IMG/VR virus record: IMGVR_UViG_2734482772_000010
Direction: 5' to 3' (one strand)
DNA length: 34,584 nt
Source of the DNA: a virus
Taxonomy: Duplodnaviria; Heunggongvirae; Uroviricota; Caudoviricetes
A model generated the notes under the pieces. That model saw only the letters and a program-made list of their open reading frames with translations. It searched no databases and had not been told where the DNA came from. This document shows, piece by piece, positions 1 through 34,584 of this stretch (position 1 is its first letter; every line of letters begins with the position of its first letter). Position numbers and translations under genes: made by a program.

Positions 1-504
1 GCCTGCTCCCAAACCAAGGTTTTTGACAAAGAGCGCCGGGTCAGGAATATCTGCGCCGTGCTGGTCTTTGGCCAGCTTTTCCGCCAGCTTGTTCAACACC
101 GTGGTCGCAAAATTCGGATCGTTGCCGAGGGCATCAGCCAGCTCTTTGAGCGTATCCAGCGTCTCAGGAGCGCTGCCAGCAAGCGCCGCAAGTGCTTTGG
201 CCACAAACTCTGTCGTCGCCAGCTTCTTGCTGTTATCACTATTTGCAGGCGTAGGCGCTGTTGGCGTGCCGGTGAATGTCGGGCTGGCTTTCGGTGCGTA
301 CTGGGTATGCGGGTCTGCTGCCGCGATGTGTTTCGCAAGTTCAGAACCGCCTTTTTCAACCTGTTGCTTCAGGTACAGCGTGCGGCTGGCCAGTTGTTTA
401 CCCTGACGGTTAGAGATTCCGTCAGGCCCACCCAGAACGGGGTCAGAGACCTCAATCTGGTAGATGCCTTCTTCCCACTGCGGGGTTTCAGGTAGGTTTG
501 CCAT
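1..504 (-). CDS. phage tail fibre protein, N-terminal part (gene continues past left edge of window)
   Basis: Minus-strand frame open from ATG at 504 to position 1 (168 codons, no stop), so absent from ORF track; ATG lies 2 nt after the stop of the upstream gene; translation begins MANLPETPQWEEGIYQIEVSDPVLGGPDGI and contains SPTFTGTPTAPTPANSDNSKKLATTEFVAKAL, a collar-type motif typical of phage tail fibres. Confidence 0.7.
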   Translation of the reverse strand, partial: MANLPETPQWEEGIYQIEVSDPVLGGPDGISNRQGKQLASRTLYLKQQVEKGGSELAKHIAAADPHTQYAPKASPTFTGTPTAPTPANSDNSKKLATTEFVAKALAALAGSAPETLDTLKELADALGNDPNFATTVLNKLAEKLAKDQHGADIPDPALFVKNLGLGAG

Positions 505-506
505 AA

Positions 507-1085
507 TTAACTGCTCCCGTGGTTATAGCTGCCGTCATAGTTGACGGTGTTGTTGTAGCGAATGGCGACAGACTGATACTCCAGGCTTGCCAGATGGCAG
601 CGGGCCGGAGCAAAAGCAGCGAGCGTCTGGCGTAACAGCGCCGCCTGATCGTTAGTGATGGGCTGTTGAAGGATGACGCGATATACCGCCCAGGCTTCCG
701 CATCGCCATGAACGAAAAGCCCGTTGTAAGTGTGTTTGCCGTCGTAGCCAATCTGGCCAGTGCCTTCAATCAGATCCACTTCGCCGAAGCCGAAACGGCG
801 GATAATTTCCCGGATGGACCACGGCGTCCCTTTGTAGCGGTGCAGCTCGATAGCGGATTTGATAAGCATGCGGCGTACATCGTCCGATTCCGCCAGTTCC
901 CAGCCATCGCCGAACAGCGAGAACTGCTCGCCAAGCCATGGCAGCGCGGAACTGTCGACAATATCGACGAGATAGACCATCAGTACGCTCAGGTCGATGT
1001 TATCCAGCCGCCCGGCCAGTTTTCCCAGCGTTCTGAGGCTGATATCACCCTCAAGCGGCGGCGGGAGTTGTAGCGGCTCAGCCAT
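507..1085 (-). CDS. tail/baseplate protein (P2 gpI / Mu gp48-like)
   Basis: 192-aa ORF; LPPPLE and RYKGTPWS motifs resemble the P2 gpI tail protein family; overlaps the upstream baseplate gene by 8 nt. Confidence 0.6.
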   Translation of the reverse strand: MAEPLQLPPPLEGDISLRTLGKLAGRLDNIDLSVLMVYLVDIVDSSALPWLGEQFSLFGDGWELAESDDVRRMLIKSAIELHRYKGTPWSIREIIRRFGFGEVDLIEGTGQIGYDGKHTYNGLFVHGDAEAWAVYRVILQQPITNDQAALLRQTLAAFAPARCHLASLEYQSVAIRYNNTVNYDGSYNHGSS

Positions 1086-2181
1086 CGGACACCCCGGTCA
1101 TGTTAAGAGTGATCGCCGTGCAGTTTGCCCATTCGTTTTCTGCCACCACCCGCAGTGGCGGTGTCACCAGTTCAACCTGGTACACCCCGGAGACGGACAA
1201 CACACTGATAATCTGGCTGGGAACAATATCGCGCCCCAGCGTGGCGGTACGTGATGCCACCCAGTTCTGTATGGCGCTGTTGGCGTTGTCCTTTACCGAG
1301 TTGGCATCCTGGTCGCGGTAGATCGTGATATTGGCTTCAATGGTGTAATCCACCTGAACAGGTGTTTTAGCCCGCACGGTATCAGTGAGTGGTCTGACTT
1401 TTTCGTCAGAACAGAAACTCTCTACCAGAGTGAGGATACTGCTGTCCGGCAGACCAGTGCTGAGCAGCGGATACAGCTCGACAGTGCCGGGAACGGGAGA
1501 AAGAACAGCAACGTCGACAATGCCGGGATGCGCCCCCATAGCATGAAAACGGTATGCACCACGGCTTCCGGCATTGGTGAATGACTCCGGGGCCAGCCTG
1601 ATACGCTCCCGGAGCCGGTGATCGTCTTCCTGCTCTGAACCGCCAGAGCTGGCCGTCAGATTGGTCACCAGCAGGTCAATGTTATCAATCTCATCGAGTA
1701 ACTGACTGACCTGCGCCGGTTGCCAGCCGTTGCCAGCGGTACCCGGCTCGGTACAGGTGGCCGTGACATTGACCAGCAGCAATCCGGCCTTCAGCACCAC
1801 GTCTGTATCGGTGGCAAAAATAATACTGTCGGAAGCGCTGACGCGGGTGCCTGCCGGGATCAGCACATCAATGGCCAGTGCCTCATCCACAGAGAACTGA
1901 AGTGTGGTGGTGGCAGGCTGCGCGGCAAGGCGGTATACACCGACCAGTTCACCGAGGTAATCAATCATCGGCTCACGGGAAAAAGCGACCAGATTCTGCT
2001 TCGCCGCCTCCTGTACTGCCACCCTGACCAGCATTTCGCGATAGGCCCACAGGTCAATCAGCAGACGTTCAGCCTGTGCCGGGTACAGCGTTTTTCCGGT
2101 ATCCGCTTCATACTTCGCAATCATTTCTGCCGTGATTTTATCGGCATCGCGTTCAATAAAATCGGGTTCTGTCAGCGCCAT
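1078..2181 (-). CDS. baseplate J-like protein (P2 gpJ / Mu gp47-like)
   Basis: 367-aa ORF immediately downstream of the gpW-like gene with overlapping stop/start; size and position typical of baseplate wedge J proteins. Confidence 0.7.
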   Translation of the reverse strand: MALTEPDFIERDADKITAEMIAKYEADTGKTLYPAQAERLLIDLWAYREMLVRVAVQEAAKQNLVAFSREPMIDYLGELVGVYRLAAQPATTTLQFSVDEALAIDVLIPAGTRVSASDSIIFATDTDVVLKAGLLLVNVTATCTEPGTAGNGWQPAQVSQLLDEIDNIDLLVTNLTASSGGSEQEDDHRLRERIRLAPESFTNAGSRGAYRFHAMGAHPGIVDVAVLSPVPGTVELYPLLSTGLPDSSILTLVESFCSDEKVRPLTDTVRAKTPVQVDYTIEANITIYRDQDANSVKDNANSAIQNWVASRTATLGRDIVPSQIISVLSVSGVYQVELVTPPLRVVAENEWANCTAITLNMTGVSDG

Positions 2182-2519
2182 AGCAACTCCTGAGTACGGG
2201 GTTGTCCGTCTGAGCCTTTCCAGCTCACCCGGAGCGTAAGATGTTCGCCGTCGACGGCGGGTTTAACCGACATAAGCTGGCAGCGGGGTTCCCAGCGCCT
2301 GATGGCATCGACGGATTCGCGAACCACATGCGGAATGGCCCGGTCGACAGGCCAGTCGATATAAAGGTGCAGATTGCTGCCGAACTCCGGGCGATGCGGG
2401 TCGCTGCCGCGGGGAGTCCGCAGGATGATCTGGATGGACTGCCGGATATCATCCAGCCCCCGGACGATTTCGCCGGGAGCCTGCAGAGCTGGTTGCCAGA
2501 ATACTGAGGTCGTTTTCAT
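2172..2519 (-). CDS. baseplate wedge protein (GPW/gp25-like)
   Basis: 115-aa ORF; sequence DDIRQSIQIILRTPRGSDPHRPEFGSNL and IRRWEPR matches the conserved GPW/gp25 pattern. Confidence 0.7.
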   Translation of the reverse strand: MKTTSVFWQPALQAPGEIVRGLDDIRQSIQIILRTPRGSDPHRPEFGSNLHLYIDWPVDRAIPHVVRESVDAIRRWEPRCQLMSVKPAVDGEHLTLRVSWKGSDGQPRTQELLWR

Positions 2520-2551
2520 GGAGGCAGTATTGCCCCCGGGAAGTAAGCGCC

Positions 2552-2574
2552 GATATTAAAGGCGTTTAAGAAGG
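2552..2574 (-). promoter_or_regulatory. conserved late-promoter-like motif, copy upstream of baseplate W/J/I and tail-fibre genes
   Basis: Plus-strand GATATTAAAGGCGTTTAAGAAGG, abutting the gpV-like stop and 33-55 nt upstream of the gpW-like start. Confidence 0.45.
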
Positions 2575-2575
2575 T

Positions 2576-3103
2576 TCAATGGGAATGGTGATTAGAGTTC
2601 TGACCATCAGCAAATATGTTACCCGTTGCATGGGCGCTTCCGTTGATTTCCAGATCACCATTGAGTGTCGCGGGGCCGTTGATCGTGGTAACTCCCGTGA
2701 GGTCGAGGTTTTTCCCTTTGAGAGAGATATCAGCGGCAACCTCCACCACGATACGCTCAATACCTCCTCTGACCGTCAGCGTATGGGTCGCGCGGTTATA
2801 ACTGAACTCCGCGCCATCAGCGTATTTCGTACCCCGGACGTTTTTATCACTGAACGGCGGTTTATCGACGTCTGAGTACACCGCGCCCAGAATAACACCA
2901 TCCTCGCCGTTGGCATCGAGCAGCACCTCAACCTGCTCCCCCACGTCAGGGAGCCAGTAATCCTTGTTATCCTGGGTATTGCGCTGTAGCACGTTAAGCC
3001 AGTTTGTGCGCAGATTATCGCATTCAGGCAGACGAACGCGGGCCTGAACCCTGTCGGCATCAACGGCACTGACCGTACCGATCTGACGGGTGACACCAGT
3101 CAT
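2576..3103 (-). CDS. baseplate spike/assembly protein V-like
   Basis: 175-aa ORF between gpD-like and gpW-like genes; OB-fold-like N-terminus; His-rich C-terminus (NSNHHSH). Confidence 0.65.
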   Translation of the reverse strand: MTGVTRQIGTVSAVDADRVQARVRLPECDNLRTNWLNVLQRNTQDNKDYWLPDVGEQVEVLLDANGEDGVILGAVYSDVDKPPFSDKNVRGTKYADGAEFSYNRATHTLTVRGGIERIVVEVAADISLKGKNLDLTGVTTINGPATLNGDLEINGSAHATGNIFADGQNSNHHSH

Positions 3104-4254
3104 TTTTTCTTCTCCTTAATCACCGTCGATGTACTGCCATCCGGGTGATAAACCGTGAGTTTCTGAGTTTTTTGTTTTTTCCCTCTTGTGACTGGCCCCC
3201 GTGCCACTTCCAGCTCTGTGGTGTAGCCGCTGTTACGCTCAAACGCATGGCGGGCAGTGATTATCAGCCATGGACCGGATAACTGTCCAAAGCCCACCAG
3301 TTCAATTTTGTTGCCTGCTGTCAGTTGAGGCATTCCCGTCAGCGTCAGGGAGCCGTTCTGCTGGTATTCGTTATGTCTGGCCAGTGCTGAATCCGCTTTA
3401 ATCCGGGCACTGTCCGGGTCGCTGACGCGGCTGTTAACTTTAAGTGAGTCAGCGCTGGTAACCTTACCGCCTTTGAGCTTTTTGTCGCTTTCACGGGTAC
3501 CACCATCAGCTTCGTAGACGATCAGTTTTTTACTGCTGCTTTTCTGGTGTTTTACCTTTGCAGATTTATAGACCCGGTTGATGGTGTCACGCAGGGAAAA
3601 GCAGGCCACATCCTGCGGTTTTAACTGCCTGACCGGCTCCTGACTGCGCAGTGTGGCCAGATGAGAAAAAATCAACTGGTCACTGACCACTTTCACTGCA
3701 TAACCATACTCGCTGGCCAGCCGGCGCAGAAAACCCACGTCGGTTTCAGCATACTGGGTCACCCGGTCGATTCTGATGGACTCAATGCTGCCCACCAGTT
3801 TCAGCCGGTGCTTTCTGGCAATCCGCCCCGCAACAGCTGCCAGCGTGGTGTTCTCAAAACCACGGCTGGATTTAGTCCGCAGAGCACTGTTAACCGAGGT
3901 GGCCACCCCACGGATAGCGACAACGGACGCGGGCGAACTCACTTCGATCTCGTCTATTGAGAATGTACCGCAGGACAGCAGTTTCTCGCCCTGATAACCC
4001 ATTTTCAGCGTCAGCGTGTCACCCTTGCCCGGATACCACTTATCCAGCCAGCGGCCATCGGTGTCGTCCAGCTCCACCTCAATGGTATCGGACTCATTTT
4101 TGATGTTATCGCTCCAGACCACACGGGTGACATAAGGCGCGATATCAGAGGTGATGTTTTTCTGCAGATACCACAGAGTGAATACCGGCGTCAGCACATC
4201 GCTGACGCCGGTTAACGCTGATGTGGCTTGCGCAGTACTGTTTATCTCAGCCAT
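3100..4254 (-). CDS. tail protein, P2 gpD-like (late control D / Mu P-like baseplate hub)
   Basis: 384-aa ORF following gpX-like and gpU-like genes, the conserved X-D-V order of P2/Mu-type tails. Confidence 0.65.
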   Translation of the reverse strand: MAEINSTAQATSALTGVSDVLTPVFTLWYLQKNITSDIAPYVTRVVWSDNIKNESDTIEVELDDTDGRWLDKWYPGKGDTLTLKMGYQGEKLLSCGTFSIDEIEVSSPASVVAIRGVATSVNSALRTKSSRGFENTTLAAVAGRIARKHRLKLVGSIESIRIDRVTQYAETDVGFLRRLASEYGYAVKVVSDQLIFSHLATLRSQEPVRQLKPQDVACFSLRDTINRVYKSAKVKHQKSSSKKLIVYEADGGTRESDKKLKGGKVTSADSLKVNSRVSDPDSARIKADSALARHNEYQQNGSLTLTGMPQLTAGNKIELVGFGQLSGPWLIITARHAFERNSGYTTELEVARGPVTRGKKQKTQKLTVYHPDGSTSTVIKEKKK

Positions 4255-4457
4255 GGGGCAATATCCTCTTCTGTACGGGCATCTTCAGCCTCAATAACCG
4301 GGATCAGTAACAACAACCCGGAGGGCAGCACCGGCGTAATGGCCACGTGCGGATTGGCTGCAATAATCCGGGGATAGCCCAGCGGGTCACCGTAGTACTG
4401 CCATGCCAGCGAATCCCAGCGCTCTCCGTCACGGGTAATATGTTCAAGAAACATCAC
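4242..4457 (-). CDS. phage tail protein X-like
   Basis: 71-aa ORF; W..YYGDP......IIAANP pattern resembles P2 gpX; overlaps both neighbours. Confidence 0.6.
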   Translation of the reverse strand: MMFLEHITRDGERWDSLAWQYYGDPLGYPRIIAANPHVAITPVLPSGLLLLIPVIEAEDARTEEDIAPWLR

Positions 4458-5338
4458 ACACTCCTCGTCAGTATTCTGGCGGCCATTGCACTTAATCCCG
4501 GAGACATGCGGTTGAATGCTGTGCCGGCGGCGTTAAGCTGCCCGGAAACGGTATCCAGAGCACCTGCAATATTTCTTTTGTCCACACCACTCAGCGCCGA
4601 CTGCGCCTGCTGTACATACGTGGCTGCCTCACTGGCTGTTCTGGCCAGACTGATGGCATCGGGCATGGATTCAGAGAGTGCATTAAACGCCGGAACACTT
4701 TTCCCCAGAGCTCCGGATATATTACCCAGTCCGCTCATCAGTCCCGGCACACGGGTCAGCGCGACAACGGGGTTACCCTTCATTTTCTGCGCCACCCGAA
4801 CGGCACTGATAGTGGTCTGGAGTACAGACTGCGCCTGTTTCGCATAGTTGACGCCGTTACGGACGAACTGCGCCACCCCGGAAGGCGATGGAACAGCACC
4901 AGATACGGCCCCGGCACCGGGAACCTGCCTGCGTATTGCCGGCGGTTGCAGAGGATTTTTCGGGTCACCGGTGTATTCCCGGAGAGACACGGTGGCACTG
5001 ACAGCCAGCACGTTACCGGTGCTGTCTGTCTGCTCGCTGGTTGCGGTCACATCGGTAATCACGAACCAGCCGCGATAGTCACCGTTGCCGAAGACCAGCG
5101 CCAGTGCCTGATGGGCCTTCATGGCTGTTCGCACTCTCGCCAGCTCCACGTCGGGCACACAATAATGCTGATGGAAGACCAGGCTTATCTGGATTTCGTC
5201 CAGCCTGTCGCCGACGAACTGCAGGCCGGGTTTACCCTCGATGCGGGCATGCTCCGCATAATCGACGCCGGACGTGGCCTCGAAGCCGTCCCAGTAGGTA
5301 ATCAGTTCAAACTCAATATCACCCAGTACGGCAAACAT
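4454..5338 (-). CDS. tail protein with P2 gpU-like N-terminal domain (Mu N / DNA circularisation protein-like)
   Basis: 294-aa ORF; N-terminal ~130 aa (MFAVLGDIEFELITYWDGFE...) resembles gpU-family tail proteins; Ala/Ser/Gly-rich C-terminal extension; directly downstream of tape measure gene. Confidence 0.55.
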   Translation of the reverse strand: MFAVLGDIEFELITYWDGFEATSGVDYAEHARIEGKPGLQFVGDRLDEIQISLVFHQHYCVPDVELARVRTAMKAHQALALVFGNGDYRGWFVITDVTATSEQTDSTGNVLAVSATVSLREYTGDPKNPLQPPAIRRQVPGAGAVSGAVPSPSGVAQFVRNGVNYAKQAQSVLQTTISAVRVAQKMKGNPVVALTRVPGLMSGLGNISGALGKSVPAFNALSESMPDAISLARTASEAATYVQQAQSALSGVDKRNIAGALDTVSGQLNAAGTAFNRMSPGLSAMAARILTRSV

Positions 5339-7803
5339 CAGCTGTACTCCTTACGTTGTTTCTGAGCCAGCAGACGCTCCAGCATTTTTTCCAGCTCATG
5401 CAGGCTCATATTCAGGGCACCAGTCAGCCCGGCAGGCGCTGCGGTTTCCTTACCATTGAGAAAAAACTGAGGATTAAAGCTGACCTGGATACCGCCAGAC
5501 GCTCCACCGCCGGTTGCAGTTGCGCCACGGCCTGAATATCCGGCAGCCATGATTTCCGGCGACGGGATACGGGGAACATCCGGTGTCATTTCAGCGGCCA
5601 GGCGCTGCCCGGCCAGTGCAGCAAGCGGAGTGGTCCGTTGCAGGCCAATGGCGGCACCCTGCGCGATATTGTCACCAAAGCCCATAAACACGCGACTCGG
5701 TGAATGGATGCCCAGCTTTTCGCTGAACCAGTCACTGATGCTGTCACCCATTCCGGTTACGCTGGTTTTGAGTGACTCCCATTTGTTTCTGATGCCATTT
5801 ATCAGCCCGTCAATAAGATGTCCACCGAAGTCGGTGAATTTCGCCGGCAGATCAACGCCGAGATATTTCAGCGCAGCCGCAAAGGCTTTATAAAGCAGAC
5901 CAGCCGGAGACCAGTTAACCAGCAGTTTACCAATTCCCGCGATGCCGCCGTTAAAGGCTTCCTGAATGTCAGCCCAGCGCTGTTTAAACCAGCTACTGAC
6001 AGCGCCCCAGTTGCGGTAGATAAGGTAAGCTGCTGCCGCGACGGCGGTGATAACGAGACCGACGGGATTCATCAGCAGCGCCCGGCCAATCCAGAGAACG
6101 GCACGCCCGGCGCTCATAATTCCGCGAACCAGCCCCCCTGAGAGCACACCCCCCAGTGTTCTGGCTCCTCTGGCGACGGCACCAAAGCCTGTCACCAGCC
6201 AGCGGAGTTTACCGCCTTCCCCCAGTGCGAGCATCAGACGAAGCCAGTTGGCCCGAAGTAAAACAGCATTTTTCCAGACGCTTACAAAGGGGGAAATAAG
6301 GAGATTCAGCCCAAGCTTGAGACCGATAGTGGCCATCCTGAAAGCGAGTAATGCGCCCACAACCTTTATGGTGCTGCTGACGAGCTGCGGATTTGCCGCT
6401 ATCCATTTGCCGACGCTGTCCATTAAAGGAATAAATGTTTCACCCAACTGGAGCAAAGCCGGACGCAAGGATTGCCCGATGCTGATAGCAGAATCATTAA
6501 AGCCGATCTGCATTCTGCGCCAGCGACCTTCAAGCGTATCATTCTGCTTTGCAGCATCCTTATCCAGGGTAGACATTGCAGCCGGAGCATTCATTTCCTG
6601 CTTACTGGAAAGGTATTTATCCCAGCCCTGTCGCATTGACAGTAAATGGTTGACAGTCTGAATATCGGTAAAGACCTCAGCCAGACCAAATGACTCCATG
6701 AGTTTCTGCTGACCTTCCTGATCGCCTCTTGCTCCTGCAGCTTTCCATTGCTGCAAAAACGCTTTGCCTTTACTGTCGATAAAACGGTTGGCAATCATCA
6801 GTGAAGCTTCGTACTGCGAAAAACCCTGAGCGACGTAATTCTGCATTGACCCCTGGTAATCCACCCCGGCTTTAGCATATTTCTGGATGGTATCTCCGCG
6901 GCCCATTGCTGCCAGCCAGTTGGACATATTGGTGACCGCTTCCTCTGCAGAGCCACTACCTTTACCGACCTCCAGACTGGCAACAATCTGGGTAATCGCA
7001 TCTTTTCCATAAATACCACGAGCAGCGAAGGCTTTAGCCATACCGGGTAATGCTTTTGCCATATCCTTCAGCTCAAATGACCCAAGTTTGGCTCCTGTTG
7101 CCGCAATACCAAATGCCTGTTCAAGTTCTTTCGCATCAGTGATTCTGAGTGCATCGCTGAAGGCATAAGTCATTTTGGCAAGGTCGGTCATATCGGCTTT
7201 GGTTGCTGTAGCGGTCTTTCCAAGCATCTCTGCAAACGTTGCTGCCCGTTCGGGGGCCATACCATCAGCAACTAATTGTCCGACTCCCCCTAACAGAGAC
7301 TCCTGCAGTTGGTTAACCTTCAGCGAGGCCTGTCTGATAGCCAGGCCAATTGCACGTTCCTGTTTTGCATCCAGGTCTCCTGTGACACTGATATCCCGTA
7401 ACTGTGATTCAAACGAGGCATATTGTTTAACCGAGGCCATGACCGGTGCGCCCAGCGTTCTGCCAATAGCATAGGTTTCTGCACCCTGACCATAGAGCGC
7501 CAGGCGGTTAGCCTTCAACGCATCACCGGTGGCTGATACTGCTGACAGACGGCGCTGCTGACGTTCAATTTGCTCCATGGTGCGGCTTACCCGCAGCAAC
7601 TCGCTGTTGAGATGCTGCATCCGGGAAGAACCCAGTTGACCATAACGTTCTGTTGCCCGGGTTAAGGCATTCTGGCGTTCCTGCAGACGGCGGGAGGTAT
7701 CACCAAGGGAATCAAGGGCGCGTCGGGTGCCACTGACGGCTGAGCGGAAGCTGCTCCCGACAATGCCGCCAATAATGACGCCGACTGAAAATTCACTGGC
7801 CAC
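5338..7803 (-). CDS. tail tape measure protein
   Basis: 821-aa ORF, largest tail gene, between chaperone pair and gpU-like gene; Ala/Gly-rich with internal hydrophobic segments. Confidence 0.8.
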   Translation of the reverse strand: MASEFSVGVIIGGIVGSSFRSAVSGTRRALDSLGDTSRRLQERQNALTRATERYGQLGSSRMQHLNSELLRVSRTMEQIERQQRRLSAVSATGDALKANRLALYGQGAETYAIGRTLGAPVMASVKQYASFESQLRDISVTGDLDAKQERAIGLAIRQASLKVNQLQESLLGGVGQLVADGMAPERAATFAEMLGKTATATKADMTDLAKMTYAFSDALRITDAKELEQAFGIAATGAKLGSFELKDMAKALPGMAKAFAARGIYGKDAITQIVASLEVGKGSGSAEEAVTNMSNWLAAMGRGDTIQKYAKAGVDYQGSMQNYVAQGFSQYEASLMIANRFIDSKGKAFLQQWKAAGARGDQEGQQKLMESFGLAEVFTDIQTVNHLLSMRQGWDKYLSSKQEMNAPAAMSTLDKDAAKQNDTLEGRWRRMQIGFNDSAISIGQSLRPALLQLGETFIPLMDSVGKWIAANPQLVSSTIKVVGALLAFRMATIGLKLGLNLLISPFVSVWKNAVLLRANWLRLMLALGEGGKLRWLVTGFGAVARGARTLGGVLSGGLVRGIMSAGRAVLWIGRALLMNPVGLVITAVAAAAYLIYRNWGAVSSWFKQRWADIQEAFNGGIAGIGKLLVNWSPAGLLYKAFAAALKYLGVDLPAKFTDFGGHLIDGLINGIRNKWESLKTSVTGMGDSISDWFSEKLGIHSPSRVFMGFGDNIAQGAAIGLQRTTPLAALAGQRLAAEMTPDVPRIPSPEIMAAGYSGRGATATGGGASGGIQVSFNPQFFLNGKETAAPAGLTGALNMSLHELEKMLERLLAQKQRKEYS

Positions 7804-7895
7804 GGTGGCTATCCTCTGAAAGCAAAAAAACGGAAGGGAAGTGTCTGAACCCCATGCAGAACAGCCGCGACTGGCGGCTGTTAAGTGATACGTTG

Positions 7896-8153
7896 TTACT
7901 GATTGTCGCCGAACTCGCTTTTGATTTGCTCTTCAGCCTGCTCCAGCCACATCTCCAGATCGTCAGTATCGAGGGCATCAATCTCCCCCGGCTGAAACCT
8001 GAACCATCTCGCCAGCAGGCCCTGCGCCTGCATCAGTGTTTTTGTCGCTCTTGCCCAGCCCAGTGATTTTCTGAAATCGTTTCTGCAGCTCCATATAGTC
8101 GGCAAGATCCATGTTATCGAGGTCTTCCGGGAGGATACCGGTGCTACGGGCAA
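7896..8153 (-). CDS. frameshift-extended C-terminal part of tail assembly chaperone (candidate +1/-2 fusion)
   Basis: Second ORF overlaps the 3' 176 nt of the chaperone ORF in the +1 frame and ends 90 nt before the tape measure start; A5 tract GACAAAAACAC in the overlap. Confidence 0.4.
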   Translation of the reverse strand: MPVAPVSSRKTSITWILPTIWSCRNDFRKSLGWARATKTLMQAQGLLARWFRFQPGEIDALDTDDLEMWLEQAEEQIKSEFGDNQ

Positions 8154-8313
8154 TCAGTGGTTCGTCCCAGTCTGCCGGGTCTTTGTTGATTTTGCGCACC
8201 TGCTTCAGGTCTTTTACTGTCAGGCGTTTCAGTTCAATCTGTTCAATTCTGGTACCTGCAGCAGTGGTGAAAGGATAAGACAGCGTAAAAGTATCGGACT
8301 GGGTCTGTGACAT
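7978..8313 (-). CDS. tail assembly chaperone (short form)
   Basis: ORF-track ORF 7978..8319; second ATG at 8313 (MSQTQ...) sits ~7 nt downstream of an AAGGAG Shine-Dalgarno; immediately upstream of tape measure gene. Confidence 0.6.
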   Translation of the reverse strand: MSQTQSDTFTLSYPFTTAAGTRIEQIELKRLTVKDLKQVRKINKDPADWDEPLIARSTGILPEDLDNMDLADYMELQKRFQKITGLGKSDKNTDAGAGPAGEMVQVSAGGD

Positions 8314-8365
8314 GATCATACTCCTTTGTAAATTCAGAGCAGTATGTCTGGCGGTGGACGTGACG

Positions 8366-8388
8366 GATATTAAAGGGGATTAAGAAGA
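8366..8388 (-). promoter_or_regulatory. conserved late-promoter-like motif, copy upstream of tail chaperone/tape measure genes
   Basis: Plus-strand GATATTAAAGGGGATTAAGAAGA, 53-75 nt upstream of chaperone start. Confidence 0.45.
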
Positions 8389-8404
8389 AGGGGCCGGAGC
8401 CCCT
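8381..8404 (-). terminator. candidate intrinsic terminator after the 93-aa ORF
   Basis: Minus-strand hairpin AGGGGC-UCCG-GCCCCU followed by U-rich UCUUCUU. Confidence 0.4.
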
Positions 8405-8410
8405 GTGATG

Positions 8411-8692: not shown

Positions 8693-8694
8693 CG

Positions 8695-10643: not shown

Positions 10644-10887
10644 GGGAGTCCTCCGTTTTCACTTCGCTGTCACTGCTGCTTCTGCGCTTTGGTGACTGCA
10701 CAGCCGGTGTGACGGCGGGTTTAGTATCTTCTGGTACCGGCGTCAGATGCTTCAGCGCCACCAGTACCTTCACGTAGTCATGCTCCTCCGGCAGGGAAAC
10801 TGTCTTCCCCGGCCAGAGCAGGATTTCGGTTCCGTCCGACAGCGTGACGCCGCTGGCCGGGCCGGAATAGCGGTATGCTTTCATCAC
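10633..10887 (-). CDS. hypothetical head-tail joining region protein (Mu gp38 position)
   Basis: 84-aa ORF, overlaps sheath gene start by 11 nt. Confidence 0.45.
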   Translation of the reverse strand: MMKAYRYSGPASGVTLSDGTEILLWPGKTVSLPEEHDYVKVLVALKHLTPVPEDTKPAVTPAVQSPKRRSSSDSEVKTEDSHGS

Positions 10888-26317: not shown

Positions 26318-26634
26318 TGAACACGAATAACACACAAAATATCCTGATGGACAGCCCGGAAGCACTGGGGCACGCACTGTGTAATCTGGTACCGGAAATG
26401 GTGCAGGGTTTCCGCGTGGTGACTCCTTCCGGTGAAATCTGCGTACCCGCACAGGAGGCGCACCCGTTTGTACTGACGATGGAGGTGATGCTGATGCAGC
26501 AGATAAGACGTCTGCAGAATCAGTCAGCGTTGCGCCCGGTAGTTGCACCGCAACCGGTAAATACCGTGGTGAAAAACTGCGATGGCGAAACACTGTGCGA
26601 CTTCGCCAGAAAAATTGCCGCCAGAATCGGATAA
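26317..26634 (+). CDS. hypothetical early protein, 105 aa
   Basis: TAATG stop/start overlap with upstream gene; no family recognised. Confidence 0.45.
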   Translation: MNTNNTQNILMDSPEALGHALCNLVPEMVQGFRVVTPSGEICVPAQEAHPFVLTMEVMLMQQIRRLQNQSALRPVVAPQPVNTVVKNCDGETLCDFARKIAARIG

Positions 26635-26649: not shown

Positions 26650-28419
26650 ATGACCCCGGCACTGACTGAAAAACTGGTTGAAACAGCCCGCGCGGCACGT
26701 AATGCGGGGCATGGTAAACGCGGCGCAGTATACGACGCTGCCTGTGCTGAACTTGGCATGTCCCGCGCCACTCTGCTGCGCAGGCTGAAGGAGGTCTCTG
26801 TGACTGATAAACGCAAAAAACGCGCCGATGCCGGGCGCAGCGCCCTGACCCGCGACGAAGCCGCGCTGATATCTGCCACACTGCGTGAGGCCACCCGCAA
26901 GAACGGTAAGCGTCTCTATTCCATCGCGGATGCAGTGGAAACCCTGCGGGCTAACGGCTTTATCACCGCAGGCAGAACAGATGAAACCACCGGTGAGTTT
27001 TTCCCGTTGTCTGAAGATGCCATCAGCCGTGCTCTGCGTAACTATGGCCTGCACCCGGAACAACTGGATGCCCCTGCACCACATACCGAAGTGGCCAGTC
27101 TGCATCCCAATCATGTCTGGCAGATTGACGCCTCACTCTGCACGCTTTACTACCTGAGCAATGGACATAAAGGGCTGCAGGTGATGGACAGCGCGAAGTT
27201 CTACAAGAACAAGCCCGCTAACCTTGCCCGTATCGCCAGTGACCGCGTGTGGAGTTACGAGATTACCGACCATGCCAGCGGCTGGATTTACGTTGAGTAT
27301 GTGACGGGCGCGGAATCAGGTGAGAACCTGTGTTCTGTGCTTATCAACGCCATGCAGGAGCGTGGCGGCGCAGACGTGCTACACGGCGTGCCGAAAATAC
27401 TCTATCTCGACCCCGGCTCGGCAAACACCGCGGGTATGACGAAAAACATGTGCCGCTCACTGGGCATCGACCTGATAGCGCACAAGCCGCATAACGCCCG
27501 CGCCACCGGACAGGTGGAAAAGGCGCGTGACATTATCGAACGCAAGCTGGAGCCGGGTCTGAAGTTCCGGCCGGTTCACAGCCTGGAAGAACTCAACGCG
27601 CTGGCCGCGAAATGGCGCAGCCACTTTAACGCCACGGCTGTTCACAGCCGCCACGGTAAAACCCGCACGGATATCTGGCTGAAGATTACTGCTGAGCAGC
27701 TGAAAAAAGCGCCTTCCGTTGAGGTATGTCGTGAACTGGCTGTGGCGGCACCAGAACTCCGCAAAGTCACGCCAAAACTTCGTGTCTCGTTCCGGGGCAC
27801 TGAATTTGACGTATCAACGGTACCGGGCGTACTGGTTGGTGAAAAACTGATGATTACCCGTAACCCATGGCGCAGCGATGTGGCACAGGTGGTTCTGACC
27901 GGTGAGGACGGCCACGAGACGTTCTTCCTGGTCGAAGAGGTCAGAAAGAACGAGTTTGGCTTTGCTGAAGGCGCGGCGGTATTTGGCGAAAGTTACAAAG
28001 CCCTGCCGGAAACCCCGGCACAGATGGCGGCAAAAGAAACTGAAGCGCTGGTTACCGGTACAGACAACGCCGCAGATGCAGCCGCCGCACGCAAGGCGAA
28101 GGCGCTGCCGTTCGGCGGGCGGCTTGACCCGTATAAACATATCGACGACACCACACTTCCGGCCTATATGCCGAAGCGTGGTCAGGCCTCTGACGTACGC
28201 GGGCCGCGCACTGAACAACGTCCCATGACTCATGTGGAGGCCGCGAAAGCCCTGCGCGATAAGTTCAGCGCCGACGGCCTTACCTGGACGCCGGAACATT
28301 ACCGCCAGTTAACGGCACAGTACCCGGACGGCGTACCGGAAGCCGCACTGGATGAAGTCATGGCCACGCTGACCACGCCGGCCCGCAGCAGCGTTATCAG
28401 CATTGTTAACGGCAACTAA
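26650..28419 (+). CDS. DDE transposase (Mu A-like)
   Basis: 589-aa ORF; candidate DDE triad in HVWQIDAS, ILYLDPGSANT and ATGQVEKA with retroviral-integrase-like spacing; followed by AAA+ ATPase gene as in Mu A-B. Confidence 0.8.
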   Translation: MTPALTEKLVETARAARNAGHGKRGAVYDAACAELGMSRATLLRRLKEVSVTDKRKKRADAGRSALTRDEAALISATLREATRKNGKRLYSIADAVETLRANGFITAGRTDETTGEFFPLSEDAISRALRNYGLHPEQLDAPAPHTEVASLHPNHVWQIDASLCTLYYLSNGHKGLQVMDSAKFYKNKPANLARIASDRVWSYEITDHASGWIYVEYVTGAESGENLCSVLINAMQERGGADVLHGVPKILYLDPGSANTAGMTKNMCRSLGIDLIAHKPHNARATGQVEKARDIIERKLEPGLKFRPVHSLEELNALAAKWRSHFNATAVHSRHGKTRTDIWLKITAEQLKKAPSVEVCRELAVAAPELRKVTPKLRVSFRGTEFDVSTVPGVLVGEKLMITRNPWRSDVAQVVLTGEDGHETFFLVEEVRKNEFGFAEGAAVFGESYKALPETPAQMAAKETEALVTGTDNAADAAAARKAKALPFGGRLDPYKHIDDTTLPAYMPKRGQASDVRGPRTEQRPMTHVEAAKALRDKFSADGLTWTPEHYRQLTAQYPDGVPEAALDEVMATLTTPARSSVISIVNGN

Positions 28420-28429: not shown

Positions 28430-29596
28430 ATGCTGGTACTGAAGCAGCAACTGAAAGAGGCCCGTATTCCACAGGCGGTGGTGGCGAGAGCTGTCGATGT
28501 TTCTGAGGCCACGCTGGCCCAGATTGTGAATCATAACGCGTGGCCCCGCACCCGCCCCGGAGAAGTGCGCCGGCGTCTTGCGTCCTGGCTGGAAAGTCAG
28601 GGGATTGATACAACGAAGAGTTTTGATGCTGTACAGGGCGCGGCCACGCCCCGTACAGCGGGTACCACAGATAAAACGAGCCTCAGTGAGGAAGAGAATA
28701 TGTTACTCAAAAAACAGGTGTTATTTCCAGCAACCAAAAAAGCGTTTGGTCTTTTCCGTGACCCGTTCGCCGACGAAGCCATGCAGGGTTCTGATGATGT
28801 GTTCACCACCCCGGACATTCGCTACGTGCGTGAGGCGCTGTACCAGACAGCCCGTCATGGCGGGTTTATGGCCGTCATCGGTGAGTCCGGTGCGGGTAAA
28901 TCCACGCTGCGCCGCGACCTGACTGAACGTATCAACCGCGAGAATGCGCCGGTGATTGTTATCGAGCCATACGTCATCGCCATGGAAGACAACGATGTGA
29001 AAGGGAAAACCCTGAAGGCAGCAGCGATTGCCGAAGCCATTATCAGTACCATCGCACCACTGGAAAGCATCAGACGCAGTCAGGACGCCCGCTTTCGCCA
29101 GTTGCATCGCGTCCTGAAAGACAGCAGCCAGGCGGGGTTCAGCCACGTTCTGGTGATTGAGGAGGCCCACAGTCTGCCTATTCCGACACTGAAACACCTC
29201 AAACGCTTTTTTGAGCTGGAGTCCGGTTTCAAAAAACTGCTGTCCATCGTGCTGATTGGCCAGCCGGAACTGGCGACAAAACTGTCTGAACGCAATATGG
29301 AAGTCCGTGAAGTCGTTCAGCGCTGTGAGGTGGTCGAACTTCTGCCTCTGGACAATAACCTTGAAGAGTTTCTGACGTTCAAACTGCAACGGGCCGGTAA
29401 ACAACTGACGGACATTATGGACGCCGGCGCAGTGGATGCCATACGTGCCCGCCTGAGCAATCCGGGAAGTCACCGTAAAAACAGGGTCAGCCTGCTGTAT
29501 CCGCTGGCCGTCAGTAACCTGGTGATAGCCGCCATGAATCTGGCTGCTGAAATCGGTGTTCCACAGGTCAACGCTGACGTTGTCAAAGGGGTTTAA
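28430..29596 (+). CDS. transposition ATPase (Mu B / TniB-like AAA+)
   Basis: ORF-track ORF 28403..29596 (TTG) with ATG at 28430 after GGAGGG; Walker A GESGAGKST and Walker B-like HVLVIEEAH. Confidence 0.8.
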   Translation: MLVLKQQLKEARIPQAVVARAVDVSEATLAQIVNHNAWPRTRPGEVRRRLASWLESQGIDTTKSFDAVQGAATPRTAGTTDKTSLSEEENMLLKKQVLFPATKKAFGLFRDPFADEAMQGSDDVFTTPDIRYVREALYQTARHGGFMAVIGESGAGKSTLRRDLTERINRENAPVIVIEPYVIAMEDNDVKGKTLKAAAIAEAIISTIAPLESIRRSQDARFRQLHRVLKDSSQAGFSHVLVIEEAHSLPIPTLKHLKRFFELESGFKKLLSIVLIGQPELATKLSERNMEVREVVQRCEVVELLPLDNNLEEFLTFKLQRAGKQLTDIMDAGAVDAIRARLSNPGSHRKNRVSLLYPLAVSNLVIAAMNLAAEIGVPQVNADVVKGV

Positions 29597-29868: not shown

Positions 29869-29893
29869 TCAGCACAACCGGAGAAATCATAAT

Positions 29894-30424
29894 ATGGCAA
29901 AAAGTACAAAAGGGGCAAAACGTATCAAGTCCGCAGCGGCACTCTGGGTACCAGGAACACGCGAAGAGGTCATTGAGGGAATCAGACTGCTCGGTGACGC
30001 ACAACGTGAACTGGTCAGGGCTGAAACAGAAATGAATGACGCCATTGGCGATATCACCGCACGTTATGCCCCGCTCACCGAGAGCCTGAAAAAACGCATG
30101 TCAGAACTGCAGTCCGGTATCCAGACATGGTGTGAGGCACACCGTGATGAACTGACCGGCAACGGGAAGGTGAAGTTCGCTAACCTCACCACCGGCGAGG
30201 TACAGTGGAGAAACCGTCCACCGTCAGTCAGCATTCGCGGGGCGGATAATGTTATTGAGCTACTGAGACGTCTGGGGCTTGAGCGATTTATTCGTGTAAA
30301 AGAGGAAATAAATAAAGACGCCATCCTGAATGAAAAAGACGCCGTGAAAAATATTCCCGGTATTACCATAAAAAGTGATATTGAGGATTTTTCAATAATT
30401 CCTTTTGAGCAGGATGTGCAGTAA
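29894..30424 (+). CDS. gam: host-nuclease inhibitor protein Gam (Mu Gam / Ku-like)
   Basis: ORF-track ORF 29678..30424 trimmed to ATG at 29894 after GGAGAAA; KRIKSAAALWVP..ETEMNDAI..WCEAHRDELTGNGKVKFANLTTGEVQWRNRPPSVSIRG..GITIKSDIEDFSIIPFEQ closely parallels Mu Gam as recalled. Confidence 0.85.
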   Translation: MAKSTKGAKRIKSAAALWVPGTREEVIEGIRLLGDAQRELVRAETEMNDAIGDITARYAPLTESLKKRMSELQSGIQTWCEAHRDELTGNGKVKFANLTTGEVQWRNRPPSVSIRGADNVIELLRRLGLERFIRVKEEINKDAILNEKDAVKNIPGITIKSDIEDFSIIPFEQDVQ

Positions 30425-30716: not shown

Positions 30717-30985
30717 TTACCCCACAGGAAGCACGACAGCGCACCCGAACCCTTGTTGAACACTATGTCAACGAGTGTGAATGCCGCGACCTCACCGATG
30801 TGAAGCACGTCCTGACAGCGCTAATCAGCATGGCCGCTCAGGCCATTGTGGCGACCAACGGAAAGGAGGCTGCCCTGCAGGTACTGGTGAACACACTCAC
30901 CCACACGGCAAAGCATGAGGTGCCGTACCGGATGGAAACCACTGCAGAAGGCAACCTGAACATCACCGTCGACCGGAAGCACTGA
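30713..30985 (+). CDS. hypothetical early protein, 90 aa
   Basis: ATGA overlap with upstream ORF; no family recognised. Confidence 0.4.
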   Translation: MITPQEARQRTRTLVEHYVNECECRDLTDVKHVLTALISMAAQAIVATNGKEAALQVLVNTLTHTAKHEVPYRMETTAEGNLNITVDRKH

Positions 30986-31305: not shown

Positions 31306-31521
31306 GTGGCTGACATACTCAGGGAAATCACCGCATGGACACTGATTCTTACTGGCCTGGCGACATGCCTCAGTGCGGGGGCAGCCCTGGCTGCCCTGCT
31401 GATACACATAACAACACAGTGGCTATGGGAAAAGCTTAAAGCAGCATACAGCCTGAAAGAACTGTCCGACGCTGTTCGGGCATGGGAACAGCAAAAAAAT
31501 ACCGGAGATACTGAACAATGA
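31306..31521 (+). CDS. small membrane protein, hypothetical
   Basis: 71-aa ORF from GTG preceded by GGGAGG; one hydrophobic segment. Confidence 0.4.
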   Translation: MADILREITAWTLILTGLATCLSAGAALAALLIHITTQWLWEKLKAAYSLKELSDAVRAWEQQKNTGDTEQ

Positions 31522-32036
31522 CAGACCAGAATAAACACATTGAGAAACTGAAAAAGTTGCTGGCGCTGGCCGCATCCGGCAACCCGCACGAGGCCGCTCT
31601 GGCACTGCGCCGTGCCCGTAAACTGATGGATGTTCACGGCATTACACATTCCGACATAGCCATGAGTGATATTGATGAAACCATCAGCCACTACTGGCCG
31701 ACAGGCAGCCTCCGTCCGCCGCGCTACATGCTGGGCCTGATGAACATCATCCGTGAGGCATTTGGTGTTAACTCCATCATTCACCCCGGCACGCATCCGG
31801 GTGTGGGGTTCTACGGCAACCGGGAACGTGCGGCACTGGCTGCATATACCTGGGAAGTGCTGGCCCGCCAGCTGAAAAAGGCGCGTCAGCAGTATGTCAG
31901 TGCACAGAACAAAAGAATAAAAACCGCCACCCGCACCAGCCGTGGCGACCAGTTTGCCGAAGGCTGGGTGCTGGCCGTTATCAGTGAAATACAGACTTTT
32001 GCCCTGACCGATGACGAGCGTGAACTGATGCAGTAG
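31518..32036 (+). CDS. hypothetical early protein, 172 aa (DUF2786-like N-terminus)
   Basis: N-terminal IEKLKKLLALAASGNPHEAALALRRARKLMDVHGI resembles DUF2786 helical domain; ATGA overlap with upstream gene. Confidence 0.5.
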   Translation: MTDQNKHIEKLKKLLALAASGNPHEAALALRRARKLMDVHGITHSDIAMSDIDETISHYWPTGSLRPPRYMLGLMNIIREAFGVNSIIHPGTHPGVGFYGNRERAALAAYTWEVLARQLKKARQQYVSAQNKRIKTATRTSRGDQFAEGWVLAVISEIQTFALTDDERELMQ

Positions 32037-32804: not shown

Positions 32805-33254
32805 ATGCAGAAAAAACGACTGATTCAGCTTATCCATATTGCCCGTAATGAACTGGGTCTGGATGAAGACACCTACCGCCAGATGTTACAGGGGCTGACC
32901 GGTAAAGCCTCAACCAAAGGAATGGATACCACACAACTAAACTGCGTGCTGGAATCCATGAAAAAGAAAGGCTTTCGGGTTAAACCTGCCAGAAAAGCCA
33001 GCTCCGGTTTACCGCTGGATGACCATCCGCAGTCCAGGAAAATTCGTGCGCTATGGCTTGAAATGGCTGCTGCCGGCATTGTTCGTGACCGTTCAGAAAA
33101 TGCATTAGCGCGGTGGATCAAGCGGGAAACGGGCATCAGCGCCCTGCACTGGCTCAGTACTGAACAGGCAAGCAGTGTTATTGAGAAACTGAAGAAGTGG
33201 CAGCACAGAGCTGCGGGAGTCAAACATGAGCGACCTGAATCAGTTTCGAAGTAA
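32805..33254 (+). CDS. gemA: GemA-like regulatory protein (Mu gp16 family)
   Basis: 149-aa ORF; N-terminus MQKKRLIQLIHIARNELGLDEDTYRQML resembles GemA family; immediately upstream of and overlapping the Mor-like gene, as in Mu. Confidence 0.6.
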   Translation: MQKKRLIQLIHIARNELGLDEDTYRQMLQGLTGKASTKGMDTTQLNCVLESMKKKGFRVKPARKASSGLPLDDHPQSRKIRALWLEMAAAGIVRDRSENALARWIKRETGISALHWLSTEQASSVIEKLKKWQHRAAGVKHERPESVSK

Positions 33255-33612
33255 GGGGCCGGAACTCCTGGTGGAACTGGCACAGCATACCTCTGAGACC
33301 GTTCGCGAGATTATTGATATTGAGCCCGAAGTTGCCGACCAGATTGGTCAGGCCGTCGCGAACCGCATGATGCAGGTCTGGGGCGGGCAAAACGTTTATT
33401 TTCCTATGGGGATGAGATGGAAGATAAGCCAGCGTGACCGTGAAATCTATGAGGCGTTTAACGGACGTAACCACCACGAACTGTCCCGCAGATTCAGGGT
33501 TTCAGTTCCCTGGATTTACAACCTGGTAAAGCGCGTAAGAAAGGAAGAAATCAGCCGGTTGCAGGGGCAGTTATTCGAAGACGATGATGAACCGAATGAC
33601 AGCCGGGATTAA
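33226..33612 (+). CDS. mor: Mor-like transcriptional activator (Mor/C family)
   Basis: 128-aa ORF; GGQNVYFPMG...RDREIYEAFNGRNHHELSRRFRVSVPWIYNLVKRVR parallels the Mu Mor C-terminal DNA-binding region as recalled. Confidence 0.7.
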   Translation: MSDLNQFRSKGPELLVELAQHTSETVREIIDIEPEVADQIGQAVANRMMQVWGGQNVYFPMGMRWKISQRDREIYEAFNGRNHHELSRRFRVSVPWIYNLVKRVRKEEISRLQGQLFEDDDEPNDSRD

Positions 33613-33629
33613 TCAAAAGCGAGGTGATA

Positions 33630-33866
33630 ATGCGCTATAAAACCCCCAACAGCGCCTCCCTGAAGAAGGCAGACCATGCAGATATGGCGATGGAAATTAT
33701 CCGGCATTTTTTTGACGGTCTGACTTCAACTGAGGCGAGATATGTTCTCCGGGAGTGCGACCGACTGATTGACAACTCACGTCTGCATATCGGGCCTGAT
33801 GAAAAGTGTGTTTTGTATTACGGGAAAGTTTTACGTAACCCACCACCACCGCCACGAAAGTGTTAA
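33630..33866 (+). CDS. hypothetical protein, 78 aa, last gene of early operon
   Basis: ORF-track ORF 33624..33866 (GTG) with ATG at 33630; Pro-rich C-terminus PPPPPRKC. Confidence 0.4.
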   Translation: MRYKTPNSASLKKADHADMAMEIIRHFFDGLTSTEARYVLRECDRLIDNSRLHIGPDEKCVLYYGKVLRNPPPPPRKC

Positions 33867-33893
33867 CGAGCGTCAATAAATTCCCGGTTTATG

Positions 33894-33930
33894 AAAAGCG
33901 CAATGGATAACCTGTTGCGCTTTTTTTATT
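33894..33930 (+). terminator. intrinsic terminator at end of early operon
   Basis: Hairpin AAAAGCGCAA-(11-nt loop)-TTGCGCTTTT followed by a T7 tract, ~30 nt after the stop of the last early gene. Confidence 0.6.
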
Positions 33931-33960
33931 CTGGCAGAAAAACATATCACCGGAGGAAAT

Positions 33961-34584
33961 ATGTTTGATGCATCCCTGCTGAATCTGCCGTGGGCAACAC
34001 TGGTGACACTGACCAGTGGATACATCGGCTATTTTATTGCGAACGTGGGCCTGAAAGACCATCACAAGCCCATCGAGGTGACATTTACGACGCTGATTTT
34101 TGGCCTGCTGTCAATGATGGTTTACCAGGCTGTTATGTGGGCAGGTCTGAATTCGTGGCTTGCAACGCCACCAGCGCTTCTTTGCGCTTTTATTTACGGT
34201 GCGTTGTGGCGCAGATACGGTCGCAAATGGATGTATGAATTTCTGCATAAGCAAAACATCTCATGGTCTGATGATACTCATTCAGCGTGGCAGTCATTGT
34301 TCAATCAGATGGATTTCACTTTTTCTGAAATCTATGTATATCTTAAGGATGGCTCTGTTTTACTTTCACGAGCCCCCGGGCGATTTGCAGGACGGCCTAA
34401 CGGTCCTGTCACGTTAGGTAATAAGGGAGATATAATCTTATACGTCACGCACCGGACTACAGTCGGGAGCAATATCTGGACAGAATGCGATAGTGGTGTG
34501 GCAGATGACGGATGGGGAACTCTGGCAACCTATATACCTGCAGAACAGATTGCCAGAGTTGATCTACGACGAGTTTGTCGGTAA
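33961..34584 (+). CDS. membrane protein, hypothetical, 207 aa (AT-rich; phage-end moron or flanking gene)
   Basis: GGAGGA RBS; N-terminal half has three to four hydrophobic segments, C-terminal half soluble; stop codon is the last 3 nt of the window; AT-rich relative to early operon. Confidence 0.5.
   Translation: MFDASLLNLPWATLVTLTSGYIGYFIANVGLKDHHKPIEVTFTTLIFGLLSMMVYQAVMWAGLNSWLATPPALLCAFIYGALWRRYGRKWMYEFLHKQNISWSDDTHSAWQSLFNQMDFTFSEIYVYLKDGSVLLSRAPGRFAGRPNGPVTLGNKGDIILYVTHRTTVGSNIWTECDSGVADDGWGTLATYIPAEQIARVDLRRVCR

Follow-up and report, generated by a model that had tools for sequence, protein, structure and literature searches.

Introduction

BcepMu-type transposable phages carry their genes in two divergent clusters: in BcepMu itself the bottom strand holds genes 1-13 and the top strand genes 17-52, and lysogeny control sits where the two meet (PMC2771037, Lavigne et al. 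2009). The phage has a lysis cassette followed by a P2-like tail, only about nine Mu homologues, and a transposase of the Tn552-IS1604 family that is unrelated to MuA (PMC2771037); its relatives end in TG…CA (PMC2628397). Burkholderia phage BcepMu (AY539836 / NC_005882) and phiE255 were grouped as 'BcepMu-like viruses' by Summer et al. (2004) and by Lavigne et al. (2009). 'BcepMu' prophages of E. coli and Salmonella are routine in PHASTER-style reports, and a 2012 review proposed that BcepMu-like phages evolved largely in Enterobacteriaceae. Here we analyse a 34,584-nt stretch of DNA from a virus of the Caudoviricetes (IMG/VR record IMGVR_UViG_2734482772_000010), referred to as the window, and conclude with high confidence that it comprises about 93% of one BcepMu-like transposable myovirus prophage, a type whose full-length relatives measure 37.3-38.2 kb. 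Its divergent layout is real, but it is a published hallmark of the common BcepMu-type family, already known and ordinary. What we add is modest: a 6-bp target duplication, a gix-like site at the window's edge, a putative late-promoter motif and four loci with a further variant of the layout.

Two divergent arms with the gene order of BcepMu

Open reading frame (ORF) lists and Pfam searches resolved the window into two unbroken runs of genes. The minus strand carries 28 late genes, of which the first is that of the holin, with its ATG at 21718 (its longest ORF extends to 21751), and the last a tail-fibre gene truncated at position 1. On the plus strand, the six-frame ORF list gives 19 early genes, from the start of a Ner-like gene (24854/24860) to 34584. 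Between the arms lies a centre of about 3 kb (21811-24771) encoding a CI-type repressor, a lipoprotein-like ORF, a Dam methylase, a DUF2441 protein and a 113-aa ORF. Cumulative GC skew tracks both arms, falling over 1-21 kb and rising beyond 25 kb. A first-pass annotation of this DNA had described such a layout, with an early operon running rightward from ~24.8 kb and a late arm running leftward from ~21.7 kb on either side of a repressor and accessory genes; it had contrasted this with Mu, in which the Mu record confirms that early and late genes are collinear.

The same annotation had suggested a BcepMu-type layout and left the family to protein searches against BcepMu, B3 and Mu. When all 52 window proteins were searched by tblastn, one genome at a time, BcepMu proved the best match, with 33 proteins matched as against 21 in B3 and 8 in Mu. 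All 33 BcepMu matches are collinear in mirror image, the late genes falling on the BcepMu plus strand and the early genes on the minus strand, so the suggested layout holds and agrees with the literature. In the BcepMu record, Mor and GemA stand at the left end, then come the transposase gp09 and, at the interface, the repressor gp17, and the genes from holin to tail fibre follow. Other features of the BcepMu group are likewise present in the window: a transposase orthologous to gp09 and not to MuA, opposite-strand clusters diverging from a lysogeny-control region, a late arm headed by holin, SLT endolysin and Rz with an embedded Rz1, and, for packaging and head, Mu-type genes that precede a P2-type contractile tail (40-77% identity to gp27-gp51). 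The BcepMu SSB, HU and acyltransferase genes had no match in this window-to-BcepMu search; the reverse search was not run.

The eight Mu matches comprise part of J, G, F, the portal, TerL, Gam, GemA and Mor/C. A true Mu-type (Muvirus) prophage whose early region is inverted relative to Mu would account for these homologues, among them a Gam 63% identical to that of Mu, and for the Gin-like invertase of the relatives, which is 72% identical to Mu Gin. However, 8 of 52 proteins is a small share, the transposase and its ATPase are unlike MuA and MuB, and the repressor, lysis, capsid and tail genes are unrelated to those of Mu. There is one Mor/C gene rather than two, no collinear single-strand order is seen, four relatives made 6-bp rather than 5-bp duplications, and nucleotide similarity to Mu is 1-2%. 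A Muvirus identity is thus highly unlikely.

The matches to B3 cover early, lysis and head genes and include no tail gene. B3 has the same divergent layout, a homologous transposase (56.5%), ATPase (55%), DUF3102 protein and winged helix-turn-helix (wHTH) regulator, and it shares lysis genes and Dam, all of which would suit a B3-type (Beetrevirus-like) phage. The B3 tail, however, is that of a siphovirus, whereas the window encodes a sheath and a tube and has no homologues of the B3 tail; its sheath-to-fibre tail proteins match B3 in 0 of 16 cases and BcepMu in 15 of 16. The lower overall count (21/52 vs 33/52) and the absence from B3 of the late motif described below point the same way. We consider a B3-type identity very unlikely and retain the BcepMu-like assignment.

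A transposition module of the BcepMu type

The 589-aa transposase (26650-28419, +) contains rve as the only Pfam domain found, and alignment to retroviral integrases places its triad at D160, D254 and E290 with DD35E spacing, confirming the typical DDE core noted earlier. Compared by sequence with solved structures, it gave only marginal matches to retroviral integrase cores. The protein is of the Tn552/IS1604-BcepMu type: tblastn matched 69 phage records, including PhiKM (99.5%), phiE255 (68.7%), BcepMu gp09 (67.8% over 98% of the length) and B3 (56.5%). Mu is not among these 69 records, and a direct BLASTP against MuA detected no similarity (E 0.46). The adjoining gene (28430-29596, +) encodes an AAA+ ATPase of the ExeA/AAA_22 kind (Pfam AAA_22 3e-20; PHROG 'DNA transposition protein') that is 59% identical to its orthologue, BcepMu gp08. 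It is a predicted functional counterpart of MuB, to which direct BLASTP found no similarity (E 2.5).

Upstream, the early operon begins (24860-26634, +) with a Ner-like HTH protein, an IclR-type wHTH regulator, a DUF3102 protein and a 105-aa ORF. The IclR-HTH and DUF3102 proteins have homologues in BcepMu (gp12 and gp10) and in B3 (ORF14 and ORF13). Downstream, the operon carries a Mu-type Gam (29891-30424, +; Pfam Phage_Mu_Gam 4e-41; 62.7% identical to Mu Gam), and its far end holds GemA (32805-33254, +; Pfam GemA 3e-40) and a Mor/C-family activator (33226-33612, +; Pfam Mor 5e-41). Queries with Mu Mor and Mu C match this one locus only, making it the sole Mor/C-family gene of the window. Among the Mu-type early homologues named in the first-pass annotation, Gam, GemA and Mor therefore stand, while 'Ner' is a weak call (HTH_35 E 0.0039, under the Pfam cut-off; 33% identity over 42 aa to Mu Ner). 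Gam has no counterpart in BcepMu, B3 or KP12, and only 7 of 80 loci from across species carry it; on this BcepMu chassis it is an accessory module of the Mu type.

Both arms belong to one bounded element

Megablast returned three related phage records: KP12 clone KP12_2, PhiKM and Phi06_2974 B. Of phage records, that of Escherichia phage PhiKM (PQ738613) is the closest; it is filed under Bcepmuvirus, a label that is the record's own. Vequintavirinae is the taxon given in the KP12 record (OM835952.1, our locus L001, 'Klebsiella phage KP12 clone KP12_2'), but its sequence is that of a BcepMu-like transposable element, probably a contig of a host prophage that was sequenced together with the phage.

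In complete copies of the element, one pair of TG…CA termini encloses both arms. These copies start with TGAT… or TGAA… (TGAAG… in BcepMu) and have two G(T/C)G(A/C)GATAAAT-type repeats at each end. Four of them have 6-bp duplications at their flanks, each at a site of its own, namely ATGCAT in CFS3292 (37,287 bp, at the start of malZ), TCTTCA in NRZ14408 (37,649 bp), GTTTGC in SCU-105 (38,208 bp) and GCTGAA in CP057953.1, in place of the 5-bp duplication that had been expected. Strain 97.3 was also tried as a duplication test and rejected: it has the same termini and no duplication, and its rearranged flanks derive from two separate loci, one being an IS4321 fragment and the other nhoA. An exact look-up of the two terminal proteins yielded contigs with differing host neighbours, the 12 termini each adjoining another host flank.

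A P2-like tail beside Mu-like early genes, with a centre of lower G+C (0.42-0.50) and variable gene content between them, could suggest two adjacent elements (P2-like late, Mu-like early) or an assembly inversion at 21.7-24.8 kb, and the first-pass annotation had named both as outcomes that would overturn its reading. The junction between the arms is nevertheless present in virion-derived BcepMu, in four closed E. coli chromosomes (CFS3292, 97.3, NRZ14408 and SCU-105) and, as the divergent layout, in 64 of 68 informative loci of other species, a locus counting as informative if two or more late markers fall within 10 kb. Its recurrence in closed chromosomes and in other species, together with the single pair of termini around both arms in the relatives, excludes both an assembly artefact and adjacent elements; three of the four chromosomes have TG…CA and a 6-bp duplication around both arms, with CP057953.1 adding the fourth duplication. 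No tRNA, integrase or second transposase was found between the arms. We regard either explanation as extremely unlikely and treat the two arms as parts of one BcepMu-like prophage.

Such prophages are widespread. Among 5,426 complete E. coli genomes, DNA related to the Mor end occurs in 640 and DNA related to the centre in 636 (~12%), and transposase relatives were found in 204 representative genomes. No match among the complete E. coli genomes reached 99%, and an exact search for a 33-mer taken from the end of the window gave no hit in species-representative genomes. Insertions have hit genes, including the start of malZ, gloA (locus L095, an assembled copy almost identical to the end of the window) and nhoA (strain 97.3); because the prophages insert into genes, recognising them matters for reading gene disruptions. 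CFS3292 (NZ_CP026935.2) carries two BcepMu-like prophages with different immunity regions, at ~2.58-2.62 Mb and 3.758-3.796 Mb; one is the copy at malZ, and the neighbours of the other are genes for an amino-acid permease and for a pyridoxal-dependent decarboxylase (gadB/gadC-like, judged from Pfam domains only).

These findings are consistent with a model in which the Tn552/IS1604-type transposase and the AAA+ ATPase would integrate the element at essentially random chromosomal sites through DDE transposition. The products would be TG…CA termini, each end with a pair of G(T/C)G(A/C)GATAAAT-type repeats, and a target duplication of 6 bp, and the element may also multiply by replicative transposition.

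A conserved motif upstream of the holin and protease/scaffold genes

The motif TAAMGCNNWTTAAAA has exactly two matches in the window, both on the late strand, where 0.06 would be expected by chance. The first, TAACGCTGTTTAAAA (21771-21785, -), lies 52 nt upstream of the holin ATG and is conserved in heteroimmune relatives and in BcepMu. The second, TAAAGCAGATTAAAA (14286-14300, -), lies in the 214-bp gap between G and the protease gene, 57 nt upstream of the protease/scaffold ATG. BcepMu also has exactly two matches, at the orthologous sites, and six further E. coli/Klebsiella relatives have two each, whereas a pattern search of Mu and B3 gave none. The motif lies 33-65 nt upstream of the holin gene in ~30 other species. 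In Mu, the C-dependent late promoters P_lys and P_I stand ahead of the lysis genes and of gene I. By this analogy of placement, the two sites look like Mor-dependent late promoters, one P_lys-like and the other P_I-like.

The G/protease gap was also considered as an equivalent of the strong gyrase site at the centre of Mu. This idea was rejected, as the gap has no similarity to that of Mu in an alignment and its conserved element matches the holin-upstream motif, and for these same reasons we read the gap as a putative promoter, though it might still house a gyrase site. The motif has a third and weaker copy, TAAAGGCGTTTAAGA, which occurs in the V/W gap (2557-2571, +), inverted relative to the late genes. 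This copy is conserved in PhiKM, NRZ14408, SCU-105 and BcepMu (30772-30786 of BcepMu, -).

On the early side, the 82-bp gap between the repressor and Ner-like genes contains a candidate early promoter, Pe (24788-24815, +). It reads TTGACA-16-TACAAT, matching 11 of 12 consensus positions, and has an ACACAC/GTGTGT dyad in the spacer; from its sequence, the region is likely the early promoter/operator. The CI-type HTH repressor itself (24361-24771, -; probable ATG at 24771) was identified by Pfam HTH_3 (6e-12) and Phage_CI_repr and by a PHROG transcriptional repressor match, and is 39% identical over 49 aa to BcepMu gp17.

Taken together, the control of the element might be as follows. The repressor, transcribed leftward at the interface of the arms, would silence the near-consensus, rightward Pe. 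Upon derepression the early operon would be read rightward to the end of the genome, through the Ner-like, wHTH and DUF3102 proteins, transposase, ATPase, Gam, small genes and GemA to Mor. As the sole activator of the Mor/C family, Mor could then act in trans on at least two opposite-strand late promoters bearing TAAMGCNNWTTAAAA, which would drive the lysis genes, the Mu-type headful packaging and head genes and the P2-type contractile tail. With late expression hinging on an activator that can diffuse, the two arms would not have to be collinear, and the late motif offers a cheap and testable handle on how a single Mor-type activator may control a non-collinear late arm.

A variable centre and optional cargo

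The accessory centre (21811-24337) was annotated with Pfam and PADLOC and holds the 113-aa ORF (+), the DUF2441 protein (22173-22754, -), the Dam methylase (22983-23747, +) and the lipoprotein-like ORF (23792-24337, -). These genes and the repressor/Ner-like pair are common to KP12 and a Pseudocitrobacter prophage (L023). PhiKM and CFS3292 have other genes in place of this pair and of the centre's content, except for Dam, which is 98.4% identical in both. The accessory centre is thus a swappable immunity/cargo module. PADLOC was used to look for defence systems in ten proteins: Dam, the conserved early proteins with DUF3102 and DUF2786, and seven ORFs that are either accessory/cargo or unassigned. 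It returned only the Dam methyltransferase and a marginal coiled-coil match.

Beyond Mor, the segment 33624-34584 (+) encodes an 80-aa ORF and a 207-aa ORF, with a strong terminator-like hairpin between them at 33893-33925. It is present in CFS3292 and NRZ14408, identical in many other assemblies and lacking in strain 97.3, where the terminus lies ~160 bp beyond Mor; the two genes are therefore optional cargo. The 207-aa ORF, which has no Pfam or PADLOC match, looks like a moron. Within the early operon, a DUF2786/DUF7168 gene (31518-32036, +) is cut by a nonsense codon (stop at 32034-32036), a C-to-T change having produced TAA; it encodes 172 aa, as against 229 aa in the 99.94%-identical copy L095. 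Over 4.6 kb, the window and L095 show three differences, all of them transitions.

Lysis, head and tail genes of the late arm

The late arm lies entirely on the minus strand and opens with the lysis cassette and two small conserved genes (19366-21718, -), in the order of BcepMu gp21-gp26. The cassette comprises holin (Pfam Holin_2-3, 1e-40), an SLT endolysin (Pfam SLT) and an Rz-like gene, and an Rz1 lipoprotein ORF with a proline-rich sequence and the lipobox LAVSC is embedded in the Rz-like gene (20038-20304). Mu-type packaging and head genes follow (14443-19369, -): TerS (gp27), TerL (gp28), the portal (gp29), F and G, supported by Pfam Phage_Mu_Gp27 (3e-51), Portal_Mu (1e-91), Phage_Mu_F and Phage_tail_S, with 52-62% identity to BcepMu and 26-49% to Mu. 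The alleles of G (14443-14901) and TerS (18821-19363) share only 54-60% identity with their counterparts in KP12 and PhiKM, in contrast to the genes next to them, which exceed 90%, and the G allele is equally divergent from that of CFS3292. Both genes are mosaic joints, and one of the two adjoins the gap with the putative promoter.

Next come the protease/scaffold gene (the Mu I/Z equivalent), major capsid, cement and head-tail connectors Gp36 and Gp37 (10633-14228, -), with Pfam matches to Phage_cap_E, Phage_cement_2, Phage_Mu_Gp36 and Gp37 and 45-54% identity to BcepMu gp32-gp37. The tail sheath, tail tube, a 93-aa ORF, tail chaperone and tape measure (5338-10643, -; Pfam Phage_sheath_1, Phage_tube, PhageMin_Tail) include a sheath 77% and a tube 68% identical to those of BcepMu. 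P2-like baseplate and tail genes U, X, D, V, W, J and I (507-5338, -; Pfam Phage_GPD, Baseplate_J, Tail_P2_I) are collinear with BcepMu gp45-gp51 at 40-64% identity. The arm ends in the constant N-terminal part of a tail-fibre gene (1-504, -), which is cut by the window edge and comes after tail protein I, an arrangement also seen in KP12, CFS3292 and loci L097-L102.

Window edges and tail-fibre inversion

The ends of the prophage had been expected to be absent or at the extreme edges of the window. They are indeed absent, as is the subterminal repeat motif of the relatives, but they do not lie at the edges. In six contigs with an identical 207-aa protein, one of them the Logan assembly that is 99.94% identical to the final 4.6 kb of the window, the Mor-side terminus is exactly 366 bp past the 207-aa stop codon, which for the window means 366 bp to the right of position 34584. 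At the other end, judged from the CFS3292 copy rather than from this element's own DNA, ~2.6 kb are missing beyond position 1, namely the invertible fibre segment, an invertase and the terminus.

In CFS3292, a 21-nt inverted repeat brackets an inverted segment of tail-fibre and assembly genes, and the adjoining recombinase is 72% identical to Mu Gin. The first 26 bases of the window (1-26), GCCTGCTCCCAAACCAAGGTTTTTGAC / CTCCCAAACCAAGGTTTT, match this repeat; the left edge is therefore the boundary of the invertible segment, a gix-like crossover site, and is likely an assembly break. The corresponding coordinates in locus L007 are 37266-37286 and 39133-39153. Assemblies will tend to break at the invertible fibre segment of the element, and a search for its ends should look for TG…CA and a duplication of 6 bp.

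Discussion

Several observations weigh against reading the window as most of a BcepMu-like prophage. Neither terminus lies within it, and termini and duplication were shown for relatives only, the closest being 99.9% identical over the last 4.6 kb. Among the immunity genes there is no orthologue of BcepMu gp16 and only a weak relationship to gp17. The Mu-like Gam of the window is absent from BcepMu, which reportedly also lacks the Gin-type fibre inversion module of the E. coli relatives. One early gene of this copy carries a nonsense codon, and the late motif was derived from the very sites that it describes. Finally, blastn to BcepMu covers 30% of the window, or ~20% identity-equivalent.

The last figure bears on rank. 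The ICTV draws the genus line at a nucleotide identity of at least ~70% over the genome to the type species. As nucleotide similarity is only ~20%, far from ~70%, the element is BcepMu-like at the family level and not a Bcepmuvirus in the strict sense. For annotation, its identity is settled as a BcepMu-type transposable prophage; it is neither a variant of Mu nor two elements.

A broader reading can be offered tentatively, as a proposal that we regard as possible rather than favoured: that the strand arrangement of transposable phages can be permuted freely, each late module having its own Mor-dependent promoter, and, separately, that the enterobacterial lineage is an unnamed genus with Mu-type Gam and Gin on a BcepMu chassis. 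The proposed modules are lysis-terminase-portal-F and protease/scaffold-capsid-tail, with boundaries at the motif-bearing gaps upstream of holin and between G and the protease gene. All four placements of the two modules seem to be represented. Both follow Mor in Mu and both lie on the opposite arm in BcepMu, B3 and the window, whereas KS10 has the protease-to-tail module after Mor and lysis-to-F opposite. In four loci with the same transposase family (L039, L041, L045 and L072), the holin-lysis-TerS-TerL-portal(-F) genes lie on the same strand directly after Mor. Scaffold-to-sheath genes stand upstream on the opposite strand in L039, with the late motif at their head; on that strand L041 and L045 show only G/Gp36 or G/MCP matches and L072 shows none.

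Compared with known systems, the element resembles Mu in its inferred life style (transposable, with headful packaging), in its Gam, GemA, Mor/C, TerL, portal, F and G homologues and in late-promoter placement. Mu differs in its collinear early-middle-late order, unrelated MuA and MuB, 5-bp duplication and Mor-then-C cascade, and in its repressor, endolysin, capsid, tail and Com/Mom. B3, a Pseudomonas phage of the genus Beetrevirus, is alike in its divergent layout, transposition module, early regulators, lysis genes and Mu-type head genes, but has a siphovirus tail, no late motif and Dam within the tail region, and shares 21 of 52 proteins.

The enterobacterial relatives, PhiKM, KP12 (OM835952) and the E. 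coli CFS3292, 97.3, NRZ14408 and SCU-105 prophages, belong to the same lineage and have the same layout, at 73-89% of window identity-equivalent. Most of their proteins are 90-100% identical, and KP12 has the immunity region and accessory centre of the window. The differences are mosaic: PhiKM and CFS3292 carry another immunity region, Gam and several of the small early genes are missing from KP12, alleles of G and TerS vary, and the 80-aa and 207-aa cargo is optional.

BcepMu, the closest of the described types, differs in its immunity and Ner-like genes, which are not orthologous, and the window adds the Mu-type Gam, Dam and other accessory genes. The two are alike in their divergent clusters with control at the interface, in the transposase (68%) and ExeA-like ATPase (59%), and in GemA and a single Mor at the genome end. 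They share a late arm headed by holin-SLT-Rz/Rz1, with Mu-type TerS, TerL, portal, F and G and a P2-type tail (sheath 77%), as well as TG…CA termini with GAGATA(A/T)(A/T)T repeats and the same two putative late-promoter motifs.

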